DNA of 64,000 bases from Geminicoccaceae bacterium (lineage in GTDB: Bacteria; Pseudomonadota; Alphaproteobacteria; Geminicoccales; Geminicoccaceae). Below the pieces are notes generated by a model. The model did no database searches. It was not told the origin of the DNA and saw only the letters and a program-made list of their open reading frames with translations. Positions 1 through 51,842 of the stretch are shown in pieces (the stretch's first letter is position 1; the number at the start of each line of letters is the position of its first letter). A program made the position numbers and the translations under genes. Where the stretch lies: assembly GCA_965222015.1 (NCBI GenBank), contig CBDCTL010000010.1:47905-111904 (forward strand), in the 5' to 3' direction.

Positions 1-1573
1 GACGGCCTCGGAGACATCGACCCGTCCCTATCGATTTCGATCGATGTCGACGCCGACGTCGATGCGTTGGACGGCTATCTCGACGGTGCCATCGATCTCG
101 AGATCGCCGACGGTGCTGTCGATCTGTCGGTAGTCACCCTCGCCGGCGCCGGCACGGATCTGGTCGGGGGTGCCATTGAAACCGGCGTGGAGATCGTCGA
201 TCAACTCCTCTCCGAGGATAGCGTCGTCGATGAAGTCGTGGGTGCCGTCGATGAAGTCGTGGATGTCGCGGAAGATCTCCTCGATGACCTCTCGGAACTC
301 GAAAATGCCATAGATGATCTCGATACCTCTTCGCTTCTGGATCTAAACGCCCTCGTCAGCGCGGGTTCACAAGTCGACGATGGGCTGAACGATCGCGATT
401 TGACGATCGACGTCAATCAGAGCCTCGTCGACCTTCCCGTTGCAGAGGGTCCGGTCCAGGCGGACCTCGATGCTATCGAAAGCATCATTGGGGACGTGGA
501 CATCGAGGCTTCGCTAGATCTTCCAGATCTCGGCATTTCGATCGGGGACGGTCAGACGAACGGCGCCGATCATCTGCTCGACGCGGTCGAGTCGGTCGTC
601 GAAAGCGCTCCGGCTGTAGGCGGCATGTTGGGGGAAGAGGGCGAGCAGGACAGCGCTTCCTTATCCAGTGATCTGCCGGCAGCGCTCGATGGAGAGAATG
701 GAGTGGTCGGCGACATCGTGGACGGTGTTTCTTCGGACCTGACGGGCGTCGAGGATGCGCTGTCGGCGCCGACCTCGTCGCTTTCGGACGCTTCGGACGG
801 TGTTTCGGAGGCGGTTTCGCTTTCGCCCGAGGGTGATGGCGAGGACACGGACGTTCTGGTGTCGACGGACCTGCTCGGGGATGAGACGTCGCTTGGCGAC
901 GGCGGGGTGGAGGTTGTTCTGGACCCTGTCGAGAGCGTCGTCGGCGACGTCGACCTTGCGGTGGATGTTTCGGGCGACGGGGTTTTGGAGGACGGTGTCG
1001 CGGTGGACGGTGTTTCTTCGGACCTGACGGGCGTCGAGGATGCGCTGTCGGCGCCGACCTCGTCGCTTTCGGACGCTTCGGACGGTGTTTCGGAGGCGGT
1101 TTCGCTTTCGCCCGAGGGTGATGGCGAGGACACGGACGTTCTGGTGTCGACGGACCTGCTCGGGGATGAGACGTCGCTTGGCGACGGCGGTTCTGGACCC
1201 TGTCGAGACGTCGTCGGCGACGTCGACCTTGCTTTCGGACGCTTCGGACGGTGTTTCGGAGGCGGTTTCGCTTTCGCCCGAGGGTGAATCGGAGACGCTG
1301 GTCAGTGACATCGTTTTGGACTTGGACGCGATGGGAAGCATGATCGAGGATGTCGAAAGCGACATGACTGCTGCGCTCGACGCGGAAAGCGACAATATGC
1401 TGGGCGATCTCGATCTCACCGAGGGTAGCACCGATTTGGTTGATCTCGCGACGAGCGCTTCGGATTCTGACGCTGACGTGCTTCCGGAGCCATCGGGCCT
1501 GGTGTCCGAAGGCATCGGCATGCTCACCGACATCCAGATCGATCAGCCGCTTGGCGGCGGCCTTTTCGGTTAG
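1..1573 (+). CDS. 5'-partial hyper-acidic repeat protein, candidate type I secretion cargo; reading frame breaks near 1190
   Basis: Open from base 1 in frame 1 (DGLGDIDPSLSISIDVDADV...) to ~1190. It then continues in frame 2 (VLDPVET...LSDASDGVSEAVSLSPEGESE...QPLGGGLFG*) to TAG 1571-1573, which abuts the ABC gene start at 1574. Composition is almost only D/E/V/S/L/G/A/T, with one Arg, one His and no Lys seen. Contains 95-aa repeats. Confidence 0.55.
718..1283. repeat. 285-bp coding tandem repeat (two units plus a partial third)
   Basis: 718-905 is identical to 1003-1190 (offset 285 bp). The ctttcggacgcttcggacggtgtttcggaggcggtttcgctttcgcccgagggtga segment recurs at ~1227-1283. Confidence 0.9.
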
Positions 1574-3277
1574 TTGGACGTGTCCGCCGCCATCAGCCTC
1601 TCCAGGCGTGAGCTTTCGACCGGACGATTGTTCGATCTCGTTATCTCGACACTCGCGATCTACATTCTGTCACTGGCTCTGCCGATCATGACCCTTCAGG
1701 TCTATGATCGGATTCTGCCGAGCGAAGATACAGGCACCCTGGCCGTTCTCATAGTCGGAGTCGTCATCGCCCTCACCCTCGAAGTGATGCTGAGGCTGAT
1801 GCGTGCCTACATGATCGGATGGAGTGGCGCGGCCTTTGAACATCGTGTTGCGTGCGATGCTATAGAGCATCTTATGTCGGCCAATCTTTCGCGACTGCCC
1901 GACCATGGCGTCGCCGGAAGCGTTCACCGGATGGCCGCCATAGGGCAGCTCAAGGATTTCTTCTCGGGGCAGTCGATAACGACGCTCTTCGAGGTGGCCT
2001 TCGTCTTCGTCTTTCTCGTACTGATCGCATACATTGCCGGTTATCTAGCATTGGTTCCTGTCGCCGTGATTTTGATTTTCGGCGGGCTGGTCGCTTTCGC
2101 TGGGGTGAAACTCAATCGGCGCCTGGCGGAGCGTGGCGACACCGACGACAAGCGCTACGATTTTCTCATCGAAGCACTTCAGGGGGTCCATACGATTAAG
2201 GCCATGGCGCTGGAGGGGATGTTTCTCAGACGCTATGAGACGCTCGAAGCTGCATCTTGCACTGCCAACTACAAGGTATCGCGAGTCGCATCTCACCTTG
2301 CAAATCTGGGAACCGTCGCTTCCCATGTGATGATTGCGAGTGTGATCAGTGCTGGCGCATTGATGGTGATCGATCACTACTTGTCGGTCGGCGCGTTGAT
2401 CGCGAGTCTGTTGTTATCGGGCAGACTAATGCAGCCGGTTCAAAAAGCACTCTTCCTCTGGATCCAGTACCAGAGTTTTCGTCTGACCTACGCGCAGGCT
2501 GCCAGTCTTTTCGACTTGCCGACGACAGCCAAGGCCCGAGAGGATGTTGAGATCGCAGCGAAGCGAGGTGAACTGATCCTTGAGAATGTCGGCTTCGGGT
2601 TCTCCGACGACTACCTCCTCTTCCAACATGTTGATCTTGAGTTGTGCCCAGGCGAGATCATTTCGCTTTCCGGCGAACAGGGTGCTGGCAAGTCGACGCT
2701 GCTGAAGATGATCGCCGGCGTTTATCCGCCGGGTGAAGGCAAAGTCCTGATCGATGGCAGTCCCACGGTTGCCTTCGATCCAAGAGAGTTGATGAATCGT
2801 GTTGGCTTGATCTCGACCGAGGGACTAATTTTCCGTGGTACCGTGCGAGAAAACATCACCCGCTTTGGCATCGTGCCGGATGCACAAGCCCTCGAAGTGG
2901 CTAAGCTCCTCGGTATTGACAAGGACTTGGCACGCCTTCCTGACGGTTTCAATACTCGACTCGAGGGGACGATCGCCGATGGTATCCCTCCGGGCTTGAA
3001 GCAGCGTATCGCCATCACGCGTTCACTAGCTCTCAAACCTCGCGTCGTGCTTTTCGACAATGCGGACCGTGGAATCGACCAGGAAGGCTACAACCTTCTC
3101 TTCTCGTTGCTGGGTCGAATAGGCGGCAAGGTCGCGATGGTGCTGGTATCCGATGATCTCAATCTACGAGGCCTCGCTTCCCGGCATCTGATCTTGACCG
3201 CTGGTGGTCTCACCCAGGATGATCGTCACACATCTGGCCAGAGCAACATTCATTTCTATCGTGAACTCAGAGCATGA
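1574..3277 (+). CDS. T1SS ABC transporter permease/ATP-binding protein (PrtD-like, no N-terminal domain) with degenerate catalytic motifs
   Basis: 567-aa ORF. Membrane domain has the [14 protein letters not shown] motif. Walker A is GEQGAGKST. The signature is IPPGL (2984-2998), Walker B is VVLFDN (Glu->Asn, 3056-3061), the Q-loop Q is T and the H-loop H is D. The start abuts the upstream stop. Confidence 0.85.
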
Positions 3278-5511
3278 ACGCCAGTGTCATAGCGTCCTGC
3301 TTGGCTGTCGATCGACCTGAAAGCATCGAACGCGGTGAATCTCTGCTTGACGAGCTTCGCAGTTCGGTCTGGATGCAAGAATCCGATATCGGAGCGTTGA
3401 ACAAGTGCTTTTGCATATTGACAACCGCTCTCGACCGACGAGCCGACCTCCAGAAAATCGTTCCTTGTCTTCCGAGAGAAGCGCGACCTTTCGACCTCCT
3501 CGCCCTCCTCAACGCTGTCGCCCACGTGGGGTACCGGCCACAGACGGCGCAGCTTTGTATCGCGGACGTTGAAGAGCGGCTTCTGCCCTGTCTGTTCATT
3601 CCGAAGGGCGGTGCGCTGGAACGCCAGGACGAGGCCCAGGTTCTTCTCGAGGTCATCGAGGACAGCGACGGGGATCGACTCTTCTGCATCTACGATGGCA
3701 CCTCGGGTGAGATAAGGCATCTCGAAAGACACGATGCTCAAGCGCAGAAGAATGGGTGCGCATACTTTTTCAAGCCATATCGTAGCCAGAGCGATCCAGC
3801 ATCGCGGATTGCCCGTCAAGCAAGCGGGCGAAGCTGGTTCGCCGCGGTTCTCGGACGTTTCCGAAGCCTGTTCGCTCAAATTCTGGCTATCGGCTTGTTG
3901 CTCAATCTTGTCGCTTTGTCGACACCGATATTCATCATGCTTGTTTACGACAGGGTTATCGCCAGCCAATCGACAGAAACGCTTTCCTTCCTGGTCATAG
4001 GTGTGTCGATCGCGATCGGCACGGAGGCGATACTGCGCGCGCTCCGATCGAGGAGCCTCGCTTGGCTGGCATCGAGAATTGATAATATTGTCAACAATAC
4101 GACTTTCGAGCAACTCTTCGGCATGCCGCCCGCCGCGATCGAGCGCGCGTCGGTATCTGCACAGATCGCGCGCATCAAGACCTTCGAGTCGCTGCGGGAC
4201 TTTTTCAGCGGGTCGGTTTTTCTGTCCTTCCTCGAAATACCGTTCGTCGTCGTTGCACTGTTGGTGCTGGGCAGTATTGCAGGGGTCATGGTCGCCGTGC
4301 CGCTGTTGGCGATCGGTTTCTACATTATGGCATTTTATTTAGTTCTTGGCCGCGTTCGCCATGAGATGCGTGAAGCAGCGAAGGCTAGTTCAGCCCGCCA
4401 CAGATTTCTGATCGAAACTTTCGAGAAGATAGAAGGAATTCGAGCGAATGGCCTGACGGACCGATGGGCGGCGATGTATCGCGAGCTCTCTGGACGTGAG
4501 TGCGTCAACAATTTCAAGCTGTCCTTCCTTGGCTTGATCGGTGAGCATGCCGGCCACGCCATCAGCCTGTTGGCAGCGACGACGACTCTCGGTCTCGGCG
4601 TCGTGCTCGCACGCGAAGCGGCCATCAGCACGGGGGCGCTCGTCGCCTCGATGATCCTCGTATGGCGCATCCTCTCCCCATTTCAAAGCCTTTGCGCGAT
4701 CGTTCCCCGACTTGAGCAACTCAGGAACAGCATCGTTCAAGTCAACAATCTAATGGATCTCGAAACCGAAGCAGTCATGAGCGCCGGCGGATCGTTTCGA
4801 CACATCAAGGGACGCATTTCATTTCAAAACGTGGCCTTTCGATACACAGCTGCGCAGGATGCGTTCATCAGAGACTTCACGCTGGAGGCGAAGCCGGGCG
4901 AGCTCGTCGTGATTACCGGCAGCAACGGAACTGGAAAGAGCACCATCCTGAAGCTGGCGCGCGGTCTCTATCAGCCGCAGACGGGGGCGGTGCGACTCGA
5001 TGGATTCGATCTGCGCCAATTGGACCCGATCCAGCTGCGCCGACAGTTGGCTTATGTCCCGCAGCGTCCTGACCTGTTTGCCGGCTCGATCGCCGAAAAT
5101 CTACGGCTTGCGGCACCTGCAGCCAGGGAATGCACTATTTGGGAAGCCCTCGAACTGGTCGACGCGGCGGCGGAGGTTGCGGAGCTGCCAGAGCAGCTTT
5201 CGACCCGAATTGGTAAGAGCGGAACCATACTGTCGTCCAGTCTCGCATTTCGATTGAGTCTGGCGCGTGCATTTCTCCAGGACACGCAGCTGGTTGCGAT
5301 CGACGAGCTTCCAAATTCTCTCCTCAACGGCAGGGCGGGACAGGCATTGAAAAGCATGGTCATCAAGCAACGAGGTCAAAGGACTATCCTCCTCGCAGCT
5401 CATCGTGCCGATCTTCTGCGCCTTGCCGACAGGGCCGTACTTCTCCGTCACGGTCAACAGCCGGGCGTCGGCTCGCCGGACATGATCTTCGGCATGATGG
5501 ATGCCGCATAG
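3274..5511 (+). CDS. T1SS ABC transporter permease/ATPase with ~190-aa N-terminal extension (possibly C39-like)
   Basis: 745-aa ORF with an ATGA overlap onto the previous ABC gene. Membrane domain has [11 protein letters not shown]. Walker A is [10 protein letters not shown]-loop VPQRP, Walker B LVAIDE (5290-5307), H-loop AAHR. The signature is LSSSL (5230-5244). Confidence 0.85.
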
Positions 5512-5555
5512 GTCGTGATGGTTAGGATCGTCTCGTTCAAGGAAGGCCTGTTTCG

Positions 5556-6893
5556 ATGAACATCTTCCCGGCTCGCGGCTATGGTCGCGATGTGCAGCTT
5601 CGATATCTGGCCCAGTCGACGAGGCTGGAGGAGGTCTCCAATCTTCGGCTCGTCAGGCTGACGCTGCTCACCGTCAGTATCGCGATCCTCGTTTTCATTG
5701 CCTGGTCAGCGCAGGCCAAAATCAGTGAAATGTCCCGGGCGCCCGGCGAAGTCGTGCCGGAAGGATCGCAGCGCACCGTTCAACACCTCGAAGGCGGACG
5801 GGTGGCAGAGATTCTGATTCGGAATGGTCAGATCGTGGAACAGGGTGCTCCACTTGTCGTGCTTGATGCCTCGGGGATTCAGGAAGATCTTAAACGTGCG
5901 CGAAGCAAGCAATTGTCGCTGCGCGTCAAGGCCGAGCGACTTCGAGCGTTCATCGCGGATCGCGAACCGGACTTCTCAGCATTCGAAGATGCGTCGGACC
6001 GCTATCTTCAGCAGCAATATCAGAGCTTCCGAAGCATGCTCGAAGCCCGCCGGAACGAAAAGAAGATCGTCAGTGCCCAGATCACGCAGAAGAACGAAAC
6101 GGTTGCTCTCCTTCAGGCACGCAAGCAGACGGTCGCGCAGGAGCTGGAACTGGTTTCCGACCTCCACAAACGCCACAAGAAACTGTTTCAGCAAGGTTAT
6201 CTTGCCCGTTCCAAGCTGATCGAGACCGAGCGGCAGCTGAACAGTCTTCTGGGCGAGCTCACCGAACTCGAGAACCAGATCCGTCAGGCGAAGGTAACGC
6301 TCTACGAGTTCGAGAATCGCCTCTCCTCGCTGGATGCCAATCATCGCGACGACGCTTATCGTCAGCTCGACGATATCGACGCGGAACTGCGGCAGAATCG
6401 TGAGGTCGTCGCCAAGCTCCGGCATCGGTCGAACAGATTGACCGTCGAAGCACCCGTTCGAGGGGTGGTGAAAGGCCTCACGGTCAACACGGTCGGTGCT
6501 GTTCTGGCGCCGGGACAGATCATCACCGAATTGGTCCCTTTGGACGAGAAGCTGATGGTCGACGTGCGAATCGCCCCGCAGGACGTCGGCCATCTGAGTT
6601 TGGGGCAGCCAGTTCAGGTGAGGGTCAGTTCCTATGATTTCGGCCGCTACGGCTCCGTCTCCGGGCGGCTGGAGTCGATCTCGGCGACGACGTTCGTCGG
6701 TGATCGAGGGGAGCGTTTCTACCAGGGGCGCGTCAGGCTCGAGCAAAACCATGTCGGCACCGATCCGCAAACCAACACGATCCTGCCGGGCATGACCGTC
6801 ATGGCTGATATCATCACGGGCGAGAAGACGATTCTCGACTATCTTCTGAAACCAATTCGTCAGTCGATTAAGACGGCGTTTACCGAAAGATGA
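5556..6893 (+). CDS. HlyD-family type I secretion membrane fusion (periplasmic adaptor) protein
   Basis: 445 aa with an N-terminal TM (LTLLTVSIAILVFIAW), a long heptad-rich central region and a C-terminal beta domain ending ...GEKTILDYLLKPI. This is the typical HlyD/T1SS adaptor layout, and the gene sits directly after the ABC genes. Confidence 0.9.
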   Translation: MNIFPARGYGRDVQLRYLAQSTRLEEVSNLRLVRLTLLTVSIAILVFIAWSAQAKISEMSRAPGEVVPEGSQRTVQHLEGGRVAEILIRNGQIVEQGAPLVVLDASGIQEDLKRARSKQLSLRVKAERLRAFIADREPDFSAFEDASDRYLQQQYQSFRSMLEARRNEKKIVSAQITQKNETVALLQARKQTVAQELELVSDLHKRHKKLFQQGYLARSKLIETERQLNSLLGELTELENQIRQAKVTLYEFENRLSSLDANHRDDAYRQLDDIDAELRQNREVVAKLRHRSNRLTVEAPVRGVVKGLTVNTVGAVLAPGQIITELVPLDEKLMVDVRIAPQDVGHLSLGQPVQVRVSSYDFGRYGSVSGRLESISATTFVGDRGERFYQGRVRLEQNHVGTDPQTNTILPGMTVMADIITGEKTILDYLLKPIRQSIKTAFTER

Positions 6894-6931
6894 GATGTTT
6901 CTGAATCTGACCTCGCAGGAACGAGCATCTT

Positions 6932-7894
6932 ATGTTGGCAGAACCTGAGCTCTCGCAGACTGACGCCGAAACTGACGCAAGGCATCATCCAGGCCAGCCC
7001 ATAAAGGTGCTCGCAGTCGATGACGATCGTGTTGGTCTGATGTATCTCGAACGTCAGATCCGAGATCTCGGTTACGACACGTCGACCGCCAGTCATGGCC
7101 AGGCGGCCTGGGACATGCTCGAAGCGGAGCCGGAGCGCTTCGATGTCATGGTGCTCGATCGGGAAATGCCCGTGATGGATGGCATGGCGGTGGCAAGGCG
7201 CCTGCAAAGCGACAGCAGGTTGCGCCGCATACCGGTGATCATGCTGACTGGTGCCGATCGCCCGGAGCAGATGCGGGAGGGTATCGATGCCGGTGTTTTC
7301 TACTATCTGACGAAGCCATTGGACGCGGTGCTTCTGCGGTCGGTTCTCAATGCGGCGACACGCCAGGTCCAAAAGCAACGTACGCTGCGTAGCGAGCTGC
7401 AGCAGCACCGGCAGAGCTTCGAACTCATTCAGACCTGCAAATTCAGCTGCCGAACGCTGGACGACGCCGAGGGCCTCGCCGTGTTCATGGCAAACTGCTT
7501 CCCTGATCCCGAGCGAACGCTTCCAGGGCTGGCGGCGCTGTTGACCAACGCCGTCGAACACGGCTCGGCCGAGATCGGCTACGACGGCAAGACGGAGCTG
7601 CTTAACCAAGGGCGGTGGCGTGAAGAGGTTCAGCATCGACTCGAGAACCACCCTGAGAAGGTCGTGGAAGCCGTTCTCGCTCGAAAGGCAGATGGTATCT
7701 ATGTCGTGATCACCGATCAGGGTCGGGGATTCCGCTGGAAGGACTATCTGGTGATCGATCCGGCCCGTGCCGGCGACAATCATGGCCGCGGCATTGCTCA
7801 GGCCAACATGCTCTGTTTCGACAAGCTGACCTATAACGAAAAAGGGAACCAGGCGATCGCGCTTGTCCGCAGCGAACCGGACATCGATTGGTGA
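6932..7894 (+). CDS. Response-regulator receiver fused to an RsbW/SpoIIAB-like HATPase domain
   Basis: REC motifs are [20 protein letters not shown] and YLTKP. The C-terminal half has an N-box LLTNAVEHG, a G1-like box ITDQGRGF and a G2-like box HGRGIAQA. No DNA-binding domain is present. Confidence 0.8.
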
Positions 7895-7901
7895 CGATCG
7901 C

Positions 7902-10900
7902 ATGAACGGCATCTTTTCCGCCGCCCGAACGGCGGATCTTCTCGTTGCCATCTGCATTGGCTCGCTGATCGCAGTTCTTGGATATGTTCACGTCGACATG
8001 TCGAAGAAAATGGAAGCCGGCTTCGAGGGCGCCGTCGACAGCCGGATGACCATCATCGAGCGTCGCGTCCAGTGGCCCATTCAAACTCTGGAAGCGTTTC
8101 GAGCTCTCTACAGTACCTCGCGGGTGATTGAGGAAAAGGAGTTCGCTGTTCTAGCGAATCGATGGTTGTCCGGTCCTGCAGCACTCGATGATGTCGACAT
8201 GGCGATGAACGCCATTGGCTGGATCCCTGTCGATAACGGAGTCGCTGCTGATGGTGAAGCTGATCCCGCATTGATTCTTGCCGCTACTGATGGCGAACCC
8301 ATGACAGCCGGCAATCGGGGAATCATCAAGCGATTCAATGGACAGGAACCAGCGGATCTACTTCTGTGGAAAGGGTTTCGGGAGGGTGTGATCGAGGCAC
8401 GTCTTGGTGTGAGTATGCCTAGGGGGACGGCGCCGGAGAGTACCTGGACCGCAACCTTTTACGTGCCCGTTTTCGACGCGATTCGCCTTAAGGGCGGTCC
8501 GCAGCTACGCGGTCACCTTTTCGCTGTCGTCAGTCTGAGGGATCTTCTGCGGAGTGATGGATCGAGCGGCAGCCTTCTAAGGATGCAAGCTTCTTATCAA
8601 ACGTCGGACGTTTGGATTACCATCGGCGACAACCGTTCGCATTCTGTCGACGACGGCAAGACAGGTCTCTACAGTCAGTTGTCTTTGCCGCTCGGTGATC
8701 AAAGCATCACATTGGTGTTTGCATCGATAAGCGATACCAGCGTGCCGGCCTGGTTTGCCTCGACGCCGGTTCCGATATTGGGTGCCTGCTTCATCTCAGT
8801 TCTTGCTCTGGGCGGCATCATGGCTCTCAATTTCAAACAGAGCCATCGTTTCGACCTCGTCTTGGATGATGCACGAAAAGCCAGGCAAAGCCAGTCCGAG
8901 TTTCTAGGGACGATCAGCCATGAAATTCGGACGCCGATGAACGGTATCATCGGTATGAGCGAACTGCTTCTTGATACGGAGCTTTCGAGAAAGCAGCGTG
9001 GCTACGCTGAGACTGTGCTGGGTTCCGCCGAGCATCTTCTGACACTGATCGATGACATGCTCGATTTCTCCCAAGTTGAAGATGCAACGGTCGAACTCAT
9101 GGCTGGGCCCATCGACGTCGCTGTCCTCTTTGACGACTTAGGCAAGCAGTTCGCTCCGTTGGCCGCTGAACGCGGGCTCGAACTCGTCATGTACCTTACG
9201 CCTGAATTTCCGCATCATGTCGTCGCCGATTCGCGGCGGCTACGCCAGATTCTAGCCAATTTAATCAGCAATGCCTTGAAGTTCACCGTCGACGGTGAAG
9301 TCGTCGTATCCGCCGAGCCGATCGCTCAGGCGACGTCGGCTGACGGTCTCGTGGCGTTGCGATTCGCCGTTTCCGACACTGGCCCCGGCATCGATGAGAG
9401 CCTGCAGAGCAGGGTTTTCGAGCGGTTCGTGCAGGGTGATGGCACGGACAGCAGGGCTTTTGGTGGTGCGGGGCTCGGGCTTTCGATCGTCAGGAAGCTG
9501 GTCGATGCCATGGGTGGCAGCTTCCGCCTAAAGAGTGCCTTGGGAAAGGGGTCGGTTTTTGAAGTCGACCTCTTCCTTCCGGCAGACGAGACGAAGAGAA
9601 CGGACGGGAACATGCCAAGCGATGCTGCTGGCAAGCGTGTCCTGATCGTCGACGATCTTCCGATCAACTGCAAGCTTCTCTCCGAGCAGCTCGGATCTGT
9701 GGGATTGGATTGCGTCACGGCAGCGAACTATTCGTCTGCGTTAGGCGCGCTACATGAAGCGGCAATCGACGGAGTTGCCTTTGCTTTGGTCCTCGCGGAT
9801 GAAGTGATGCCGAGAAAGGGCGGCGTCGCGCTCGCTTCGGCAATCGCCGATGATCCGACTCTATCGGGAACGCCGTTGATCCTGTGCGCCAACGCCGGCA
9901 GCGAGCATCTGGCAAGACTGAAGGCGCATCATGGCGTCTCGTCTGTCATCTCCAAACCGATACGGCTTGCGGGACTGATCGACGAGGTGGCCTCGATTTG
10001 CCGTTCAATACCGAAAAGCGAACCCCAGGCCCCAGGTCCCAGGCCTGTTGCGGCGATTATCGAAGGCGGCATTGGTCACGACGGTGCGAACACCGGAGCG
10101 CCTGCAGCCTTTGCCGAGGAGGAGGACAGTATTGTTCGGGCTGTGCATCCGGCGATGGGAGAACAGCAGGGACCTGAAAGCAGCGCGCCGACAAAAGCAG
10201 ACCGGCGCGGCAAATTCGAAGGATGTTCGGTGCTGCTGGTCGAAGACAATCGAGTCAATCGAACCTTCGCGACGCAGGTTCTGGAAGATCTGGGATGCAT
10301 GGTAGAACAGGCAGAGAATGGAGAGGAAGCCGTCCAGGCCGTCGGTGCAAAGGAATTCGACGCAATCCTGATGGATTGTCAGATGCCGATCATGGACGGA
10401 TTTCGGGCAACTTCGAAGATCTGCGAAATGACGAAGAACGGAGAAATCCGATCGACGCCGATCATCGCACTCACGGCGAATGCGATGCCAGGCGACAGAG
10501 AGCGGTGTTTCGGTGCCGGCATGCATGATTATATGTCGAAGCCTGTCCGGAAAGCCGACTTCGTCACGACACTCGGTAAGTGGCTGGACAAGAACCTGCA
10601 GCCCTCAAAATTGGAAAGTCCGTCGGCTTTGCAAGGGCGGTCCGACCTCGCGAAACCTGAGGCAAGGGTGCCACCGTCCACGCTGTCCGCGCCCAATTTG
10701 CCGGGCTGCAAAGACAAGGTCGCAAGAATGCCCGATGTCGCTGCTGAGCCAGCTCAGAGCCGTATATCCGATCGGAAGGTGACGGCAGTCGAACATGGCG
10801 AGAATCCGCACCCGGTGCTCGACCGCTCGGCGCTCGACAATGTTCGGTCGATGATGAAAGACGACTTTGCATCGATCCTGAACATCTTTTTGGAAGATGC

Positions 10901-11171
10901 CGCCACCTACGTCGACAACATCGCCAGGGGCATTGAAGAAGGAACCTTCGACAAAGCAGCGAGTGCGGCCCATGCACTCAAATCTTCTGCCGGTCAGCTG
11001 GGGGCCATGCGGTTGTCCAGCTTGGCGAAGCAATTCGAGGCGGATGCCAAAGCGGTCACCAAGGATCAAAGCCAGTCCCGAACCCAGGGCGACTGGTCCG
11101 GCCAGAGCGCAAGCCTGCGGCGGGTTTTCGCGGAGACCAAGCATGCACTCGAGGAGGTGGTGCAAAGTTGA
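7902..11171 (+). CDS. Hybrid sensor histidine kinase (periplasmic CHASE-like domain, HisKA, HATPase, two REC, C-terminal Hpt)
   Basis: H-box [15 protein letters not shown]-box ISNALKFT, G-boxes DTGPGI and [12 protein letters not shown]1 is at ~9640-10000. REC2 has LLVEDNRVN ... [11 protein letters not shown] ... YMSKP. Hpt motif is [16 protein letters not shown] 7902 is preferred over the ORF-track start at 7863. Confidence 0.9.
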
Positions 11172-11263
11172 CCATATGCCGACAACGTTTGAATCCCCTT
11201 GCTCATGGCGGCTCTTATCTGACGCAGATCGAGTCGAACTGAACCGAAAGGAGTATGACTCTC

Positions 11264-11635
11264 ATGAACGTCCTCGTCGCCGAAGATGATCGCATGCTGC
11301 GATCCATCATGGTCGAATTCCTCGAGGATTTCGATTGTTCGGTTCATGCTGTGTCGAACGGCCAAGAGGCCGTCGCTGCCCTCCAGGAGTGCAGCTATGA
11401 CGCGGTCTTCATGGATTGTGAAATGCCGGTAATGGATGGTCTGACGGCCGCCAGAACGGTAATGGAAGAAGGTGGAGGCTCTGGCATGAAGGCGCCGCCG
11501 ATCATCGCGCTCACCGGACATACCGATCCTGATGACCATGTCCGATGCCTTGAAGCCGGCATGGTGGCGGTCCTCACGAAGCCAGTGAACATATCGGAAC
11601 TCGAAACGCTCCTCAATCGCTTTGCGAGTCTCTGA
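11264..11635 (+). CDS. Single-domain CheY-like response regulator
   Basis: MNVLVAEDD ... FMDCEMPVMDG ... VLTKP. AAGGAG at 11248-11253 is better spaced for ATG 11264 than for the ORF-track ATG 11255. Confidence 0.85.
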   Translation: MNVLVAEDDRMLRSIMVEFLEDFDCSVHAVSNGQEAVAALQECSYDAVFMDCEMPVMDGLTAARTVMEEGGGSGMKAPPIIALTGHTDPDDHVRCLEAGMVAVLTKPVNISELETLLNRFASL

Positions 11636-11964
11636 TTCTGCCCAGCTCATTGCAGCAGCAATCCTGACCGCGGTCCCCGGGCCGACGAAACGTCAACGCT
11701 TTCGACGACCTTGCGGCGTGCGAGATCTGGTCCCGTTTCACAACCTGTCGAAAGCGGAGTTCATTGCGCGGTCGTTCCCTTTCCGGGTGGAGCTCGCGCA
11801 ATCGCTTGCCAGAAGGCTTCAAGGGGAATGGCATTCCAAATCTTGAGTGCAGTGGGATCCGATCGACGTCGTCCGGGCATAGAGCGAGGCTAAGCTTGGA
11901 TCAAGAGTAGCCATCCGATGAGAGCCGCCCAACGATCTTGCGCAATCTGCTGCTGAGTGTGGCT

Positions 11965-12330
11965 ATGCCTATGGATAGTCACAGTGCCCAGACTTGCCGG
12001 CTGGAGGTCGTGGACACCGGTTGGCGTCGTCGCCGGAGCCTCGAGGAGAAGCTCCGGATTGTCGAGGAGAGCTACCGCGGTCATCGGCAGGTCCCGGCGA
12101 CAGCGCGGCGGCACGACATTTCGCGATCGCTTTTGTTCAGGTGGCGGAAGGCTTTCCGGGAAGGCCGTTTGGGTATGGCGCCGGACGAGCCCTCTTTGGT
12201 GCCGGCGATCATCACCCGGGATGATGACCCGGATGACGACGACGATAACAGCTACCCGGCGCCTGGCGGTCGGGTGATCGTCGACGCCGGCGCCCTGGCG
12301 CGGGTACTCAAGGTTCTGGACCGACGATGA
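11965..12330 (+). CDS. tnpA: IS66 accessory protein TnpA (orf1, HTH)
   Basis: RLEVVDTGWRRRRSLEEKLRIVEES...ARRHDISRSLLFRWRK matches the IS66 orf1 pattern. ATGA overlap with the next ORF at 12327. Confidence 0.75.
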   Translation: MPMDSHSAQTCRLEVVDTGWRRRRSLEEKLRIVEESYRGHRQVPATARRHDISRSLLFRWRKAFREGRLGMAPDEPSLVPAIITRDDDPDDDDDNSYPAPGGRVIVDAGALARVLKVLDRR

Positions 12331-44456: not shown

Positions 44457-45088
44457 GCGCAGGTCACGATCACCGCCATCCGAAGCAGCCGGATCTGGAG
44501 GATCGGCCCTTCGATCACCATCAGCTCATGGCCGAAGCGGTCGGTGAGCTTCTGATCGAAAAGGGCGTGTTTTCCGCGGCCGAGCTTCGCAAGACCATCG
44601 AATCCATCGACGCCCGCTCGCCCGCGGACGGCGCGAAAGTCGTGGCACGCGCCTGGGTCGATCCGGCCTACAGGGCGCGGCTGCTCGACAACGCCAACCA
44701 GGCCGCCGCCGAGCTCGGGATCGACGCCGGCGCCATTCCGATTCGCGTGGTCGAGAACACCGAGCGCGTGCACAATGTCATCTGCTGCACGCTCTGCTCC
44801 TGCTATCCCCGCCTGCTGCTCGGCCTGCCGCCCGACTGGTACAAGGCGCGCGCCTATCGCTCCCGCGTGGTGCGCGAGCCGCGCGCCGTGCTCGAGGAGT
44901 TCGGCACGGTCGTTCCCGAGGACGTCGAGCTCAGGGTGCATGACAGCACGGCCGACCTCCGCTATATGGTCCTGCCGCGCCGTCCGGCCGGCACCGAGGC
45001 GATGGGCGAAGCCGAACTCGCCGGCCTGGTGACCCGGGACTGCATGATCGGCACCGCCGTGGTCGAGCCGACGCGGGAGGGCAGCTGA
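44453..45088 (+). CDS. Nitrile-hydratase-family alpha subunit, cobalt-type metal site
   Basis: ATGA overlap with the previous gene. The VCTLCSC-type claw appears as CCTLCSCYP (CTLCSC at 44786-44803); Thr in this motif is the Co-type signature. ARAWVDPAYRARLL is also present. Confidence 0.9.
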   Translation: MSAGHDHRHPKQPDLEDRPFDHHQLMAEAVGELLIEKGVFSAAELRKTIESIDARSPADGAKVVARAWVDPAYRARLLDNANQAAAELGIDAGAIPIRVVENTERVHNVICCTLCSCYPRLLLGLPPDWYKARAYRSRVVREPRAVLEEFGTVVPEDVELRVHDSTADLRYMVLPRRPAGTEAMGEAELAGLVTRDCMIGTAVVEPTREGS

Positions 45089-45196
45089 AGCCCGAAGCCG
45101 TGACGGGCCGTTGCCGTTAACCTTGCGTTAGCATCAATTCGTTATGTTCGCCGCAGTCATGGACGCTCGTCCAGTCTCAGACTGCGGAGAAGACCT

Positions 45197-45715
45197 GTGC
45201 CACAGCGCCTGTTCCCGAGCATCGTCGCCGTGCTTTCGTTTCTGACAGTCGTCACCCTGCCGGCCGCCGCCATGCCGCCGCTGCCGAAGCCCAAAGGCCA
45301 GGTGTTGCTCAGCGTCACCGGCGGGATCGAACGGACGAACGCCGAAGGGCGTGCGGATCTGGACCGGAAAATGCTCGAGTCGATCGGTCTGGTCGAGATC
45401 GAGACCGAGACCCCCTTCACCAAGGGCAGGACGACCTTCCGCGGCGTTCTCGCGCGCGACCTGCTCCGCCATCTCGGCGCAAGCGGCGACAGGATCGAAG
45501 CGGGCGCGCTCGACCTCTACAAGGTCGAGATCCCGACGGAGGATTTCGAGCAGTTCGACGTGCTCATCGCCCTCGAAGCGGATGGCAGAAGGCTGCGCGT
45601 CCGCGACCATGGCCCCGCCTGGATCGTCTATCCCTGGTCGCAGCACGAAGAACTCGGCAAGGAGGTCTACAGTCGACGCAGCATCTGGCAGATGAACACC
45701 ATCGACGTGCGATGA
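45197..45715 (+). CDS. Secreted small protein resembling a sulfite-oxidase-family (Oxidored_molyb) domain
   Basis: Signal peptide LFPSIVAVLSFLTVVTLPAAA. FRGVLARDLLRHLG...ALDLYKVEIP...LIALEADGRRL...HGPAWIVYP resembles the Moco-domain core. GTG start after GGAGA. Confidence 0.6.
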   Translation: MPQRLFPSIVAVLSFLTVVTLPAAAMPPLPKPKGQVLLSVTGGIERTNAEGRADLDRKMLESIGLVEIETETPFTKGRTTFRGVLARDLLRHLGASGDRIEAGALDLYKVEIPTEDFEQFDVLIALEADGRRLRVRDHGPAWIVYPWSQHEELGKEVYSRRSIWQMNTIDVR

Positions 45716-47157
45716 TCCCGATTCTCGGCAAGCGAGGACTCCTCTATATCGGTCTCTTCGGCTTTCTCATTCTGTCGAGCTCCGGGATGATCGGGGGGCT
45801 GGCCGGGTTGCGTGACACCATCGATCTGTCACCGGACTCGATCACCGGCTATGACGGCCATCGGGCCGAGGTCGAGTTCTCGCGGCTTCAGAACGCCATT
45901 TCACTCTACGTCGCCGGTTCGGAGAGTATCGATCTCGACGACGTGGTCATGCGCTTCGACATCCTTTGGGCCCGGGCCAACCTTTTCATGAATGGCAAGG
46001 CGTTCGAGTTCATGCGGCAGCAGGCCGGAGTAGGCGAGATGGGAGCGCTCATTCTCGAAACACTTCAGGCAATCGAGGACGACGTCATGAATCTCGAGCG
46101 TGGCGATCTGGCCACGCTCGAGCATGTCCAGGCACGGTTGGAGCCGCTTGAAGCCAGACTGACCGGTGCCACGACCCGGATCGCTGACCTCGAGGTGGAA
46201 CAGCGGGATCACGTCAACTCCTCTCTGCGGCGCGGGCTCGGAGAGCTGGATGGTCTCGGCGTTGCGGTCGGGCTCGTCGTGTCCCTGGTCCTGACGCTTT
46301 TCGGCGTCGAAGCGATTCAGGCTCGTCGAGCCGAGCGCAAGCTCGCCGACTATCAGGAACATCTGGAAGACCTGGTGGCGCAACGGACTGATGAGCTCGA
46401 GGAGCAGACCAGACTCCTGGAAAAGGCGCTGGACAAGGAGCGTGAGCTCACCACGCTGCAGCGGCAATTCGTGTCGATGGTGTCGCACGAGTTTCGCACG
46501 CCACTCGCCATCATCGACGGATCGACTCAGCGCCTGAGACGGCGGCTCGAGACCATGTCGGCCGACAAGGTCAAGAACGCCCTCGATCAAATTTCACGAT
46601 CGGTCGGACGGCTTCTGCATCTTATGGAAAGCACCTTGAGCGCCGCGCAGCTCGAAGCGGGTTCGATCGCCATGAGTGTCGGGGCCTGCGATCTGCAGGC
46701 GCTCATCGGTGAGGTGTGCAGCGACCAGCAGGAGCTGGCCAAGAGGCACCGGATCGTGGTCGGGCTGGAGGCGATGCCGGACATCGTCCAGGCGGACGGC
46801 AAGCTCCTGCGCCAGGTTTTTTCGAACCTGCTCTCCAACGCCGTGAAATATTCACCTGAAGGCGGCGAGGTGCGCGTCGACGGATGGGCGGATGGCGACC
46901 AGGCGGTGATCGCGGTTCGCGACCACGGCGTCGGCATCCCCGAGGCGGAGCTTCCCCGTCTGTTCCAACGCTTTTTCCGCGCCAGCACGTCGACGGGCAT
47001 TCCCGGCACCGGTATCGGGCTCCATTTCGTGAAGCATCTCGTCGAGATTCACGGCGGCGCCATCGACGTGGAAACGCGGGCCGGCGAGGGCTCGACCTTC
47101 TTCGTGCGCCTGCCCATCCAGGGATCCGAGGCCGTGGGAGACCGCGAGGCGGCCTGA
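45712..47157 (+). CDS. Membrane sensor histidine kinase (two TM, ~165-aa periplasmic loop)
   Basis: ATGA overlap with the upstream gene. H-box VSHEFRTPLAIIDG, N-box LSNAVKYS, G-boxes DHGVGI and GTGIGLHFV. Confidence 0.9.
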   Translation: MIPILGKRGLLYIGLFGFLILSSSGMIGGLAGLRDTIDLSPDSITGYDGHRAEVEFSRLQNAISLYVAGSESIDLDDVVMRFDILWARANLFMNGKAFEFMRQQAGVGEMGALILETLQAIEDDVMNLERGDLATLEHVQARLEPLEARLTGATTRIADLEVEQRDHVNSSLRRGLGELDGLGVAVGLVVSLVLTLFGVEAIQARRAERKLADYQEHLEDLVAQRTDELEEQTRLLEKALDKERELTTLQRQFVSMVSHEFRTPLAIIDGSTQRLRRRLETMSADKVKNALDQISRSVGRLLHLMESTLSAAQLEAGSIAMSVGACDLQALIGEVCSDQQELAKRHRIVVGLEAMPDIVQADGKLLRQVFSNLLSNAVKYSPEGGEVRVDGWADGDQAVIAVRDHGVGIPEAELPRLFQRFFRASTSTGIPGTGIGLHFVKHLVEIHGGAIDVETRAGEGSTFFVRLPIQGSEAVGDREAA

Positions 47158-47593
47158 GAACCTTCTGTGTAGGCGCGGCTCTGCCGATGCTGCAGCCGGA
47201 TCGTGCGACAGGCAGGGCCGCTCGATGCATTGCCTGCGGCCGCACGGCGTCCGTTCGAACACCGATAATCTCCATCCGAGTCGCAGGAGCCCCATGGGGC
47301 TTCGGGCAGACCCGTCGCCCGATCGCCGACACCCGCCGCCGCGTTTCGCGGCCTGCCGCTCCGGATCATCGGTCAACTGAGACGTAGGTTACCGGACGGC
47401 GTCTTCGATCGGATCGGGCTCTGGTCGTCGGCAAAACTTGGAATAGTTAGAATCGATAGGTGCAGAACGCCTCGAGGGCGAATCGGCGAGGCCATCTTCC
47501 GGCATCTGCGCCTGTGTACGAACCCATGGCCACGGCCGCAGCTCATTTCGGCCGATGGCGATCGATGACCGAGCGAAAAAAGGGGAAGGTTTC

Positions 47594-48157
47594 ATGTCGA
47601 AGCGAAGCTCTCTGGCGCTGTTCTGCGCCCTCGGCACGATGGCGGTGTCCGGTCCTTCCGACGCCGCCGAGCTGTCGTCGGCGGAGGGCCCGGTCGTGCT
47701 CACCATCGCGGGCGAAATCGAGAACACCAACCGTCCCGCGTTCGACGCTTTCAAGGATCCGTTCATCAACTATCACGAACGCCCCTTCGAGAAGGCGGCG
47801 GAATTCGATGCCTCCATGCTCGAAGCGCTCGGCATGCACGAGTTCGAAGTCAACTACGAAGACTGGCCCGAGCCCGTCACGCTCGCCGGCCCCCGCCTCG
47901 CCGACCTTCTGGACGCCGTCGGCGCGGATCCGGAGACGATGATGGTCCTGGCGCTCGACGGATTTGCCGTCGATCTGTCCGCCGAGGTCCTGGAAAGCGA
48001 GGACTGGATCGTCGCGATCAAGCAGAACGGCGCCTATATGGGCCTCGGCCAGCGCGGACCCGCCTGGGTGGCGTTCGACCCCGGCGACGACAAGACGATC
48101 ACGCCCGAAGAGGAGGGAAGCTGGCCCTGGGCGGCGTTCTTCATCGAAATCAAGTAG
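47594..48157 (+). CDS. Secreted paralog of the 45197 protein (Oxidored_molyb-like)
   Basis: Signal peptide LALFCALGTMAVSGPSDAA. LAGPRLADLLDAVG...ALDGFAVDL...IVAIKQNGAYM...RGPAWVAFDP parallels 45197..45715. Confidence 0.6.
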   Translation: MSKRSSLALFCALGTMAVSGPSDAAELSSAEGPVVLTIAGEIENTNRPAFDAFKDPFINYHERPFEKAAEFDASMLEALGMHEFEVNYEDWPEPVTLAGPRLADLLDAVGADPETMMVLALDGFAVDLSAEVLESEDWIVAIKQNGAYMGLGQRGPAWVAFDPGDDKTITPEEEGSWPWAAFFIEIK

Positions 48158-48182
48158 ACGTTCCGGCCTGCGCGGGCGGCTC

Positions 48183-48632
48183 TCAGTGCTTCATCATCGT
48201 CGCGTCGACGGTGAGATGGCTGGGGGCCTCCGCCCAGAGTTTCTCGATCATCTGATCGAACAGGAGAATTTCGGAGAACGGCACACTCAGCGAAAGGCTG
48301 ACGTCGACCACGCCGTCGGTTTCGCTTTCGTCGACCGTGACCTCGGCCTTCACGTCGGTGGATTCCGCGAGCCTTTTGAGGACGAACGCCTCGACGTCGT
48401 TCTTTTCGAGCGCGCCGACGGCGAAGCGGCGCGTCGCGTCCCGAACGATGTCGCTGAGCTGATTGCGTACCAGATAGACGTTCGACATCTCGATAATGGC
48501 GAGGATCAGGAGCAGCACGAAGGGCAGCATCAGGGCGAACTCGACCGCGCCGGCGCCGCGCCTGCCGTCGCCGCCGGCGATCAGACGCTGCGCGGTCCGT
48601 CTCATCGATGCGATATGTCGCCCGCTGAACAT
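48183..48632 (-). CDS. TadE/TadG-like pilus assembly protein
   Basis: GAGAVEFALMLPFVLLLILAIIEMSNVY is the TadE N-terminal signature. No other tad genes lie nearby. Confidence 0.7.
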   Translation of the reverse strand: MFSGRHIASMRRTAQRLIAGGDGRRGAGAVEFALMLPFVLLLILAIIEMSNVYLVRNQLSDIVRDATRRFAVGALEKNDVEAFVLKRLAESTDVKAEVTVDESETDGVVDVSLSLSVPFSEILLFDQMIEKLWAEAPSHLTVDATMMKH

Positions 48633-48787
48633 GAAGTGCGACGGCCTCGTCTCTCGGATTCTGCTGCAACGGTTCTAGACCATTTACGTTAAGGACGAGT
48701 TAACGCCGGCGGACGACACCGCAGCTTCCGCCGGGAGGCGAGGGCCGGCGCGTCTCTCCGGCTCGATTTTCTACCGAGGATGCTCTA

Positions 48788-48814
48788 GTGGTATGACCAC
48801 GGTGGTATGACCAC
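48788..48814. promoter_or_regulatory. Two tandem copies of the palindrome GTGGTATGACCAC
   Basis: Copies at 48788-48800 and 48802-48814 are identical 13-bp perfect palindromes spaced 14 bp apart, in the intergenic region between the TadE-like gene and yajQ. Confidence 0.4.
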
Positions 48815-48962
48815 ATCATCTGGTTCTCTTCCGCAGTTGCCAAGATTGACGGTTTGCCGCCGAGTTTTGTCGATGCCGAGGGGATCTTTCGTATCGAACG
48901 CACCGCGAGATCCCTGAAATCGACTCCCCATTCCCCCGCACGCACATCTTCGGATCAAACTC

Positions 48963-49448
48963 ATGCCCAGCTTCGACATCGTTTCCAAGACCGAGATTCC
49001 CGAGGTCGACAACGCGCTGCAGGGGGCCAGACGCGAGATCGAGACGCGCTACGACTTCAAGGGCAGCGCCTGCTCGATCGAGCGCAGCGGCGAGACGCTC
49101 ACGATCAATGCGGATGACGACTTCAAGCTGAAGCAGGTGCAGGAACTCCTGCGCGGCCACATGGCGAAACGCAAGGTCGACACCCGCGCCTTCGACTTCC
49201 AGAAGCCGGAAAAGGCCAGCGGCAACAGCCTCCGCCAGACCGTCGCGATCAAGCAGGGCGTCGACCGCGAGCTCGCCCAGAAGATCGTGAAGGCGATCAA
49301 ATCAGAAAAACTCAAGGTCCAGGTCGCCATCCAGGGCGACGAACTCCGCGTCTCCGGCAAAAAACGCGACGACCTCCAAAGCGCCATCGCCTTCGTCAAG
49401 GGCCAGAAATACGACCACCCGCTGCAATATGTGAATTTTCGGGATTGA
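48963..49448 (+). CDS. yajQ: YajQ-family (UPF0234) nucleotide / cyclic-di-GMP-binding protein
   Basis: MPSFDIVSKTEIPEVDNALQGARREIETRYDFKGS... 161 aa, the canonical YajQ family pattern. Confidence 0.9.
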   Translation: MPSFDIVSKTEIPEVDNALQGARREIETRYDFKGSACSIERSGETLTINADDDFKLKQVQELLRGHMAKRKVDTRAFDFQKPEKASGNSLRQTVAIKQGVDRELAQKIVKAIKSEKLKVQVAIQGDELRVSGKKRDDLQSAIAFVKGQKYDHPLQYVNFRD

Positions 49449-49664
49449 GGCGCCAGTGGCACCGGGCTGGACTTGCCTGAGACTGATTTGGCGGTTTGGG
49501 GTCAGCTTTGGTGGTGCCGTTGCCGGCAGCGGAGCTAGGGGCATGCTCGACAGAGATGGCGATTTGTCCGAAAGCTAGGAATTCCTTATAAGATGATGCT
49601 CTAGTTTAGCGATAGAAGCCAGAAGCACTGGGCAAATTCCCGATACCTATGTTGGAAGTATTCT

Positions 49665-50486: not shown

Positions 50487-50563
50487 GAAGAGCACATACG
50501 TTTCCGAAATTTGGCAAAGGGCGTGTGACGCCGCGCAAAGAACGGCAACGAATCCAGCCGCAA

Positions 50564-50591
50564 GAAAAACCGGCGGCCCGAAGGCCGCCGG
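50564..50591 (-). terminator. Rho-independent terminator of the TRAP substrate-binding-protein gene
   Basis: ccggcggcc-cgaa-ggccgccgg (50570-50591), a 9-bp GC stem followed on the minus strand by a T-run (aaaaa at 50565-50569 on the plus strand). It lies 25 nt after the stop at 50616. Confidence 0.7.
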
Positions 50592-50615
50592 CAGGTCAAC
50601 GAGATCGACGTTCGA

Positions 50616-51671: not shown

Positions 51672-51842
51672 GGTCGTCTCCCTTGTTGAACCGGGCCTCC
51701 CTTGGCCCGATCGGATGGTCATCATTGCGCCTTCGGCCGTTGGATCGCCGAAGACGGCGGAAATCTTGGGCGCATACCGTCAATCCTGGCCATGGCGGTC
51801 CGAGTCCATGAGGTGGCCACGCCACCCATGCCACCCACGCCA

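Follow-up and report, generated by a model that had tools for sequence, protein, structure and literature searches.

Type I secretion systems (T1SS) of the classical HlyB, LssB, and PrtD type are built around an ATP-binding cassette (ABC) homodimer with two canonical ATP sites and export mostly repeats-in-toxin (RTX) cargo. In an ABC dimer, each ATP lies between the two subunits—one gives Walker A, Walker B, the Q-loop, and the H-loop, and the other gives the signature motif and the D-loop. Transporters with a C39-like domain make up the Group 2 class. The multifunctional autoprocessing RTX (MARTX) system of Vibrio, RtxB-RtxD-RtxE, is a four-component type I system that needs two ABC proteins, for which a heterodimer has been suggested (PMC3034196; PMC4316617), and both RtxB and RtxE fall into the Group 2 transporter clade (PMC4316617). 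Heterodimeric exporters of the TM287/288 type are generally held to retain a canonical LSGGQ at their active site and to bind ATP at the degenerate site (in part after PMC8277102). Herein, a locus is described from the beginning of a 64,000-nucleotide stretch of a Geminicoccaceae bacterium genome (assembly GCA_965222015.1, contig CBDCTL010000010.1, positions 47,905 to 111,904), which is referred to as the window. Two adjacent genes encode unlike ABC half-transporters, named ABC1 and ABC2, and are followed by the gene of a HlyD-family adaptor. As judged from comparative sequence evidence, ABC1 and ABC2 likely form a heterodimer that would hydrolyze ATP at the ABC2 site only and, with the HlyD adaptor and a TolC protein encoded elsewhere, mediate type I secretion of an acidic cargo.

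The register of the nucleotide-binding motifs follows from phmmer alignments to the Escherichia coli HlyB structures 8dck and 7sgr, which run over the full length of both ABC1 and ABC2 (Table 1). ABC1 matches ABC_membrane (8.8e-25) and ABC_tran (1.5e-20) in Pfam. Its best NCBIfam family is TIGR03375 (LssB) with 328 bits, which is under the cut-off of 693.1 bits. The match covers model positions 151–683; hence, ABC1 lacks the N-terminal domain. In its nucleotide-binding domain (NBD), the Walker B Asp (D495) is kept, the catalytic Glu is replaced by Asn (N496), and the D-loop reads RGID instead of SALD with D502 kept. ABC2 matches both ABC_membrane and ABC_tran as well, and the LssB family is again the best with 450 bits over model positions 3–678, under the same cut-off. 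Its D-loop reads NSLL instead of SALD, thereby having lost the Asp. For both proteins, the next-best NCBIfam families are HlyB and PrtD. A canonical LssB-type transporter encoded elsewhere in the same genome reaches 947.9 bits on TIGR03375.

An earlier note on this DNA, made from the letters alone, had described ABC1 as a 567-residue protein without an N-terminal domain that keeps Walker A and carries Thr at the Q-loop, IPPGL as the signature, Asp-Asn in Walker B, and Asp at the H-loop; the HlyB alignment and the LssB model agree with this description. The alignment of ABC2 returns what it had given for that protein—Walker A, Q-loop, Asp-Glu, and His kept, together with the signature LSSSL—and adds the loss of the D-loop Asp, which the note does not mention. 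The lengths of both ORFs (567 and 745 residues) also agree with the note. A misregistration of the motifs, which the note had named as its own possible flaw, is ruled out because the HlyB alignments place them at the same positions. Its statement that one NBD has lost every catalytic residue applies to the catalytic Glu and to the Gln and His of the Q- and H-loops; Walker A and the Walker B Asp, however, are retained in ABC1. The typing with hidden Markov models and TIGRFAM families that it had proposed gives LssB, HlyB, and PrtD as the best matches, with both proteins far under the curated cut-offs.

The conservation of the two subunits was counted over 78 ABC1 and 73 ABC2 orthologues (71 at the Walker B positions). 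ABC2 shows the Walker A pattern G..GxGK in 73/73, the Walker B Asp in 71/71, and the catalytic Glu in 66/71 sequences. At the equivalent positions of ABC1, the Walker A Lys is found in 62 and the Walker B Asp in 76 of the 78 orthologues, and the position of the catalytic Glu is occupied by Asn (58), Glu (11), or Asp (6). The Q-loop residue is mostly Thr (28/78) or Ser (23/78) and rarely Gln (3/78) in ABC1, and Gln (53/73) or Lys (18/73) in ABC2. At the H-loop, ABC1 carries Asp (52), Glu (14), or Asn (7) and in none of the 78 sequences His; ABC2 carries Tyr (43/73) or His (20/73). The elements that a subunit lends to its partner are distributed the other way around. The ABC1 signature reads [IV][PTS]PGLKQR, with the Gly and the following Gln each present in 76/78 and the Pro of the third position in 68/78, and the D-loop Asp is found in 78/78. 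The ABC2 signature is variable, its commonest residue accounting for 26–53 of the 73 sequences per position, and the D-loop Asp is absent (Leu in 55, Met in 13). The conserved elements hence belong to one site, combining the catalytic residues of ABC2 with the signature and D-loop of ABC1, and the other site drifts; this argues for a heterodimer with one active site.

The strongest single observation is that about eleven ABC1 orthologues (L034, L039, L042, L047, L052, L056, L057, L063, L072, L092, and L093) have no P-loop—GxxGxGKST is replaced, for example, by SNDSAALSS, SDHTPSLAA, AADDVALAV, or GPSERANSM—and keep IPPGLKQR as well as the D-loop Asp. ABC1 would therefore serve the ATP site of its partner, and species with such an ABC1 would possess natural single-nucleotide-site ABC exporters. 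Local decay or a pseudogene is ruled out as the origin of the motif states in the window, as the same states are hallmarks of the family in the 78 ABC1 and 73 ABC2 orthologues counted. The earlier note had paired the catalytic residues of ABC2 with the divergent IPPGL of ABC1; the comparison favors this pairing. The divergent signature xPGLKQR is the norm of a large family and no oddity of this genome.

The two subunits also belong together by gene order and descent. A search of 5.8 billion proteins yields thousands of ABC1 relatives of ~570 residues and ~50% identity and a matching set of ABC2 relatives of ~740 residues, many members of the two sets stemming from contigs of equal length. They carry generic database names, such as ‘ABC transporter transmembrane domain-containing protein’, ‘peptidase domain-containing ABC transporter’, and the KEGG-style ‘LapB’. 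In a scan of one genome per species, an ABC1 relative is found in at least 472 genomes. Most carriers are alphaproteobacterial metagenome-assembled genomes labeled Micavibrio, Rickettsiales, or Rhodospirillaceae, and a few are gammaproteobacterial (Candidatus Endobugula sertula, Cellvibrionaceae). Among cultured species, it occurs, for example, in Micavibrio aeruginosavorus, Kordiimonas sediminis, Acuticoccus yangtzensis, and Aureimonas endophytica. In 80 species-level loci, for which open reading frames (ORFs) were called and assigned by phmmer, the order cargo–ABC1–ABC2–HlyD is nearly invariant, with ABC1 followed by ABC2 and HlyD wherever the sequence is long enough. The stop of ABC1 and the start of ABC2 overlap by NTGA in 62/75 loci (ATGA in 53, GTGA in 5, and TTGA in 4), and in the window, ATGA lies at 3274-3277. 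Among the homologues from the protein searches, no natural ABC1–ABC2 fusion occurs. Across 24 diverse members, about 60 positions of ABC1 are invariant, and many of these lie in the membrane domain.

The sequence identity between ABC1 and ABC2 is 27%. The same genome contains a second triad of a short ABC protein, a long ABC protein with a C39-like N terminus, and a HlyD protein (G000:C1 ~155000-160300; L095:5025-10314, minus strand), whose counterparts are 34% identical to ABC1 and 32% identical to ABC2. Its short subunit keeps Asp-Glu, has Gln in place of the H-loop His, and carries the signature SEGLI; its long subunit keeps Asp-Glu, His, and the D-loop and carries SPGFL. The second triad is flanked by DUF2332 upstream and a sulfur transporter downstream, with no acidic cargo or receiver gene adjacent. 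A maximum-likelihood tree of 38 core sequences separates the short from the long subunits, each set forming its own clade with an SH-aLRT support of 100. Their internal groupings largely match: a gammaproteobacterial set, the Acuticoccus/Aureimonas pair, and a group of the window and the two relatives nearest to it occur in both. The canonical LssB-type transporters encoded in the same genome are the sister group of the long clade. The subunits of the second triad, along with the Kordiimonas pair, branch off basally in their respective clades. This basal position of a less degenerate triad suggests that the duplication is old and that the degeneration was progressive. Coupling, codivergence, and complementary conservation hence speak for the earlier proposal that ABC1 and ABC2 would be an obligate heterodimer with one dead site.

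The N terminus of ABC2 was modeled by AlphaFold2 from 26 family sequences with a mean predicted local distance difference test (pLDDT) of 88.7 and a predicted template modeling score (pTM) of 0.82. A Foldseek comparison of this model against the Protein Data Bank gives 3b79 (a C39-like domain), PCAT1, the ComA peptidase domain, and the HlyB C39-like domain 3zua as top matches, with a probability of 1.00 and E-values from 2.6e-4 to 2e-3. The Pfam family Peptidase_C39 does not match this region. The first core helix begins with G40-A41-L42, and C45 and C47 sit deeper in the helix. Where peptidases carry the catalytic Cys, the family consensus is Trp-Glu, and the core strand 122–129 (QVLLEVIE) contains no His. 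Leader cleavage by ABC2 is thus not expected, as neither a Cys at the start of the core helix nor a His on the core strand is present. An active C39 peptidase is ruled out by the lack of Cys and His at the catalytic positions and of a Pfam match. Judged from the positions in the model and the alignment, the N terminus of ABC2 is a predicted noncatalytic C39-like domain, which occurs on one subunit only.

The remaining parts of a type I system are found as well. The adaptor scores 359.6 bits on TIGR01843 and is thereby over the cut-off of 208.65 bits. Within the 64-kb window, there is no TolC gene; the genome contains two OEP/TolC genes, on the contigs C23 and C24. In 29/80 loci, chiefly of the Micavibrio-like group, a TolC-family (OEP) gene adjoins the cassette just upstream. 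An ABC half-transporter with a type IV-fold membrane domain and an NBD, an adjacent HlyD adaptor, and an available TolC-family factor are thus found. The gene arrangement given in the earlier note, namely the ATGA overlap, an adaptor after both ABC genes, and the lack of an outer-membrane factor in the window, is borne out by the sequence, by TIGR01843, and by the OEP genes being confined to C23 and C24.

A candidate cargo gene lies directly upstream of ABC1. It starts ~650 nucleotides before the window (G000:C10 ~47257), and the window holds its last ~520 codons. The earlier note had proposed to survey how often the two ABC genes and the adaptor co-occur with acidic proteins: in 67 of the 70 loci with enough upstream sequence, the ORF directly 5′ of ABC1 is acidic and poor in Lys and Arg, and in 56 of those loci, it ends with GLF(G). 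These proteins have 500–2900 residues with 9–37% Asp and Glu and, in all but one locus, at most 3% Lys and Arg (usually ~1%). The upstream ORF often touches or overlaps the start of ABC1. The cargo carries no signal peptide. Its N-terminal consensus reads kLdADxyxaxDlDGvtEslfGSGNlny..lQa and its C-terminal consensus LPdPxgxvxeGLg...GGLFG followed by the stop; an internal motif LDPxE...GDxDx is present in 57/70. Neither the cargo nor its homologues match a family in Pfam or NCBIfam. RTX nonapeptides are absent in 48/70 cargo homologues, most others have one match only, and the cargo of this genome has none. An RTX cargo is ruled out by this survey. In most cargo homologues (L014–L093), LDP[VIL]E...GD[IVL]D[IVL] repeats 1–20 times; it could represent a novel kind of acidic repeat, which perhaps binds cations and fills the role that RTX repeats have elsewhere.

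In the window, the conserved C terminus is found as LPEPSGLVSEGIGML...GGGLFG before the stop, in the frame of the ORF 1040-1573. A tandem repeat of 285 bp near 1190-1290 contains a change of frame in the cargo gene, after which the conserved C terminus continues in the other frame. In each of four public runs, the short-read contigs are interrupted between 747 and 1258, where the depth is raised. The break of the frame may hence be an assembly artifact or a real frameshift. In the four runs, the cargo gene also shows an in-frame deletion of 6 nucleotides, which lies at 1405 in three of them and at 1413 in the remaining one; compared with all four, the window is longer by 6 nucleotides.

Signaling genes accompany the cassette. 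An orthologue of the receiver/RsbW-like protein encoded behind HlyD in the window (300–336 residues) lies 3′ of HlyD in 52/80 loci; several further loci have a shorter or cut match at this place, and hybrid kinases follow the HlyD cassette in several loci, including those of Micavibrio. Because of this recurrence, the phosphorelay seems to be part of the cassette. In the window, positions 6932-11635 behind HlyD encode the fusion of a receiver with an RsbW-like HATPase_c_2 domain, a hybrid histidine kinase with two receivers and Hpt, and a single receiver. Immediately before the window, a dCache/PAS histidine kinase of 883 residues (G000:C10 ~44550-47200; L094:6550-9201, minus strand) is encoded divergently from the cargo gene. 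PAS-HisKA kinases of ~855 residues adjoin the cargo gene in two related loci (L009 and L010).

In the proposed mechanism, ABC1 and ABC2 would be the unlike halves of one heterodimeric exporter. The catalytic site would be formed by Walker A, the Walker B Asp-Glu, the Q-loop Gln, and the H-loop His of ABC2 and closed in trans by IPPGLKQR and the D-loop Asp of ABC1. The dead site, comprising Walker A, Asp-Asn, Thr, and Asp of ABC1 and the LSSSL and Asp-less D-loop of ABC2, would not hydrolyze ATP and bind it at most; here, it probably does still bind nucleotide, because the P-loop of ABC1 is intact. The lone C39-like domain of ABC2, being devoid of a catalytic dyad, would most likely dock the unfolded acidic cargo, as the C39-like domain of HlyB does. 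The most likely cargo is the product of the gene directly upstream of ABC1, and its export path would lead through the HlyD adaptor and then a TolC-type channel encoded elsewhere.

Several points weigh against this mechanism. Both ABC proteins remain far under the LssB cut-off (328 and 450 against 693 bits), and in the supposed active-site signature, two residues of LSGGQ, the Ser and the first Gly, are missing. In other members of the family, the active site is even less canonical than here, with Tyr at the ABC2 H-loop in 43/73 and Lys at the Q-loop in 18/73. Hydrolysis by HlyB requires the H-loop His. As most ABC2 members lack this residue, hydrolysis may be slow or work differently. In addition, the break of the cargo gene in its repeat means that the system might be without a cargo in this genome.

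Other arrangements of the same components have to be weighed. ABC1 and ABC2 could form separate homodimers within one HlyD-bound assembly, for example, with an active ABC2 dimer and ABC1 dimers as scaffold in a trimer of dimers. Among solved structures, the HlyB/HlyD complexes 7sgr and 8dck are the nearest relatives. The HlyB/HlyD complex is said to contain three HlyB dimers per HlyD hexamer, one of which is reportedly used for translocation, which likewise counts against the heterodimer, and a purely structural role would suit an ABC1 without hydrolytic residues. In an ABC2 homodimer, however, the catalytic residues would face the weakly conserved signature and the Asp-less D-loop of ABC2 itself, and an ABC1 homodimer gives no reason for keeping the Gly (76/78), the Gln (76/78), and the D-loop Asp (78/78) while its own P-loop decays or is lost. 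Trans-completion in a heterodimer fits the complementary pattern better, rendering mixed homodimers unlikely. That ABC1 is a functionless, decaying duplicate next to a homodimer of ABC2 alone is far less probable still. It is true that ABC1 has no Gln at the Q-loop, no catalytic Glu, and no His at the H-loop and that some orthologues lack Walker A, but its ORF is intact in the genomes of at least 472 species, ~60 of its residues are invariant in 24 diverse members, and it is translationally coupled to ABC2, with its clade diverging in parallel.

The complex might also have another task, either by exporting another substrate (a peptide, lipid, or polysaccharide) or by acting, with hardly any ATP turnover or none, mainly as a sensor or regulator coupled to the neighboring phosphorelay. 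Such a role would agree with both ABC proteins being under every curated type I secretion cut-off, with the family-wide noncanonical active site (H-loop Tyr and Q-loop Lys of ABC2), with the receiver/RsbW-like protein after HlyD in most loci and the hybrid kinases in several, and with the broken cargo frame. On the other side stand the clear type I HlyD adaptor, the best matches of the ABC proteins to LssB, HlyB, and PrtD, the C39-like domain of ABC2 as in HlyB, the adjacent TolC gene in 29/80 loci, and, directly upstream in 67/70 loci, an acidic protein that has no signal peptide and whose extreme C terminus is conserved. Taken together, another substrate or a mainly regulatory role is improbable, and type I secretion by an ABC1–ABC2 heterodimer is preferred.

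The coordinates of all features are collected in Table 1.

Table 1 Features of the ABC1/ABC2 locus, with positions counted from the first nucleotide of the window
Feature	Position	Strand	Description and basis
Candidate cargo gene, 3′ part	1..1573	+	Very acidic, nearly Lys/Arg-free repeat protein; translations
ABC1	1574-3277	+	567 residues from TTG (database entry: GTG 1580, 565 residues); short half-transporter (transmembrane domain and NBD)
ABC1 Walker A, G367-T375 (GEQGAGKST)	2672..2698	+	Intact; HlyB alignment
ABC1 Q-loop position, T415 replacing Gln	2816..2818	+	HlyB alignment
ABC1 signature equivalent, I471-P-P-G474-L475, then KQR	2984..2998	+	HlyB alignment
ABC1 Walker B and D-loop, VVLFD495-N496-ADRGI-D502	3044..3079	+	HlyB alignment
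ABC1 H-loop position, D527 replacing His	3152..3154	+	HlyB alignment
ABC2	3274-5511	+	745 residues; long half-transporter (predicted C39-like domain, transmembrane domain, and NBD)
ABC2 predicted C39-like domain, residues ~38–175	3385..3798	+	AlphaFold2 model, Foldseek, family alignment
ABC2 Walker A, G549-T557 (GSNGTGKST)	4918..4944	+	HlyB alignment
ABC2 Q-loop Gln, Q597	5062..5064	+	HlyB alignment
ABC2 degenerate signature, L653-S-S-S-L657	5230..5244	+	HlyB alignment
ABC2 Walker B, I-D677-E678, then LPNSLL	5299..5325	+	Catalytic Glu kept; HlyB alignment
ABC2 H-loop His, H710	5401..5403	+	HlyB alignment
HlyD-family type I secretion periplasmic adaptor	5556-6893	+	445 residues; TIGR01843, Pfam HlyD_3
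Receiver domain fused to RsbW-like HATPase_c_2	6932..7894	+	320 residues; Pfam

The genes of ABC1, ABC2, and the adaptor are codirectional, and the start of ABC1 directly abuts the stop codon TAG of the cargo gene at 1571-1573. The region 1258-7000 is reproduced by the contigs of the four public runs, which stem from one sample, with 0–6 base changes each and untouched motif codons. The motif states of ABC1 and ABC2 are hence not sequencing errors, and an error of sequencing or assembly in the motifs is ruled out over this range. The GC content of the cassette block is 55–58% compared with ~65% in the rest of the window. Along the window, positions 1-12000 have a GC content of 55–61% and most of the remainder 61–69%, with another low patch of 56–57% at 48001-52000. 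The cassette occurs in one of eight other genomes of the genus and was not found in the other genomes of the family, for which other genera were sampled. Because of its low GC content and this patchy presence, the cassette looks like an island acquired horizontally in the lineage of the window.

On a wider scale, it is quite possible, if somewhat short of probable, that the family constitutes an undescribed and widespread class of T1SS. Such a class would be defined by an obligate heterodimer with a single site (with an xPGLKQR signature, often without the H-loop His, and sometimes with a second site devoid of a P-loop), a noncatalytic C39-like domain on one subunit only, a dedicated non-RTX cargo of a new type, very acidic, free of Lys and Arg, and with conserved motifs at both termini (ending in GGLFG), and its own phosphorelay possibly gating secretion. 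Current models of type I secretion rest on homodimeric pumps with two equivalent ATP sites, such as HlyB and PrtD, and the ABC1/ABC2 family suggests otherwise. A single ATP site may suffice, as it apparently is the sole site retained in at least several hundred species, without the signature Ser and often without the ‘linchpin’ His. The family thus represents a natural experiment on the number of ATPs and contacts that are needed per type I secretion cycle. The conserved termini of the cargo could reveal a new secretion signal, which would possibly be useful as a secretion tag. Recognition of the family would also improve annotation that is now limited to generic names.

No curated family was found for the ABC1/ABC2 design, and searches of the openly available full-text literature gave no two-ABC type I system besides RtxB/RtxE and nothing on the ABC1/ABC2 family. 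From MARTX, the system is set apart by the published description of the former. The MARTX genes follow the order B-D-E with the adaptor between the ABC genes, whereas here the short ABC gene is followed by the long one and then the adaptor. The MARTX cargo is a giant RTX toxin, whereas here RTX repeats are lacking and the N-terminal domain is found on one subunit only. PCAT1, ComA, and LahT share the fold of the ABC2 N terminus, which, unlike them, has no catalytic Cys or His.

The HlyB/LssB/PrtD type comprises the best relatives in sequence and structure and shares the half-transporter layout and a HlyD-family adaptor, here over its curated cut-off. In addition, HlyB has a C39-like domain, and the hly operon also relies on a TolC encoded elsewhere. 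The differences are the two nonidentical subunits, the dead site, the non-RTX acidic cargo, and the scores far under the cut-offs. With the type IV-fold heterodimers with one degenerate site—TM287/288, TmrAB, BmrCD, LmrCD, and TAP1/TAP2—the system shares two unlike half-transporters that are encoded together, here by adjacent genes. In both cases, one NBD is without the catalytic Glu and without the His of the H-loop, and the partner signature facing that site has drifted, leaving one hydrolytic site. In contrast to the TM287/288 type, the active-site signature is [IV][PTS]PGLKQR with the second Gly of LSGGQ alone retained and thereby falls short of a full consensus, and the P-loop of the degenerate site is wholly lost in about eleven orthologues. 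Moreover, the pump is tied to a HlyD adaptor, carries a C39-like domain on one subunit, and would have a protein as cargo. Hence, the design would be that of an asymmetric heterodimeric ABC exporter, which follows a known logic and appears here in a type I secretion setting, for which no earlier description of it was found.

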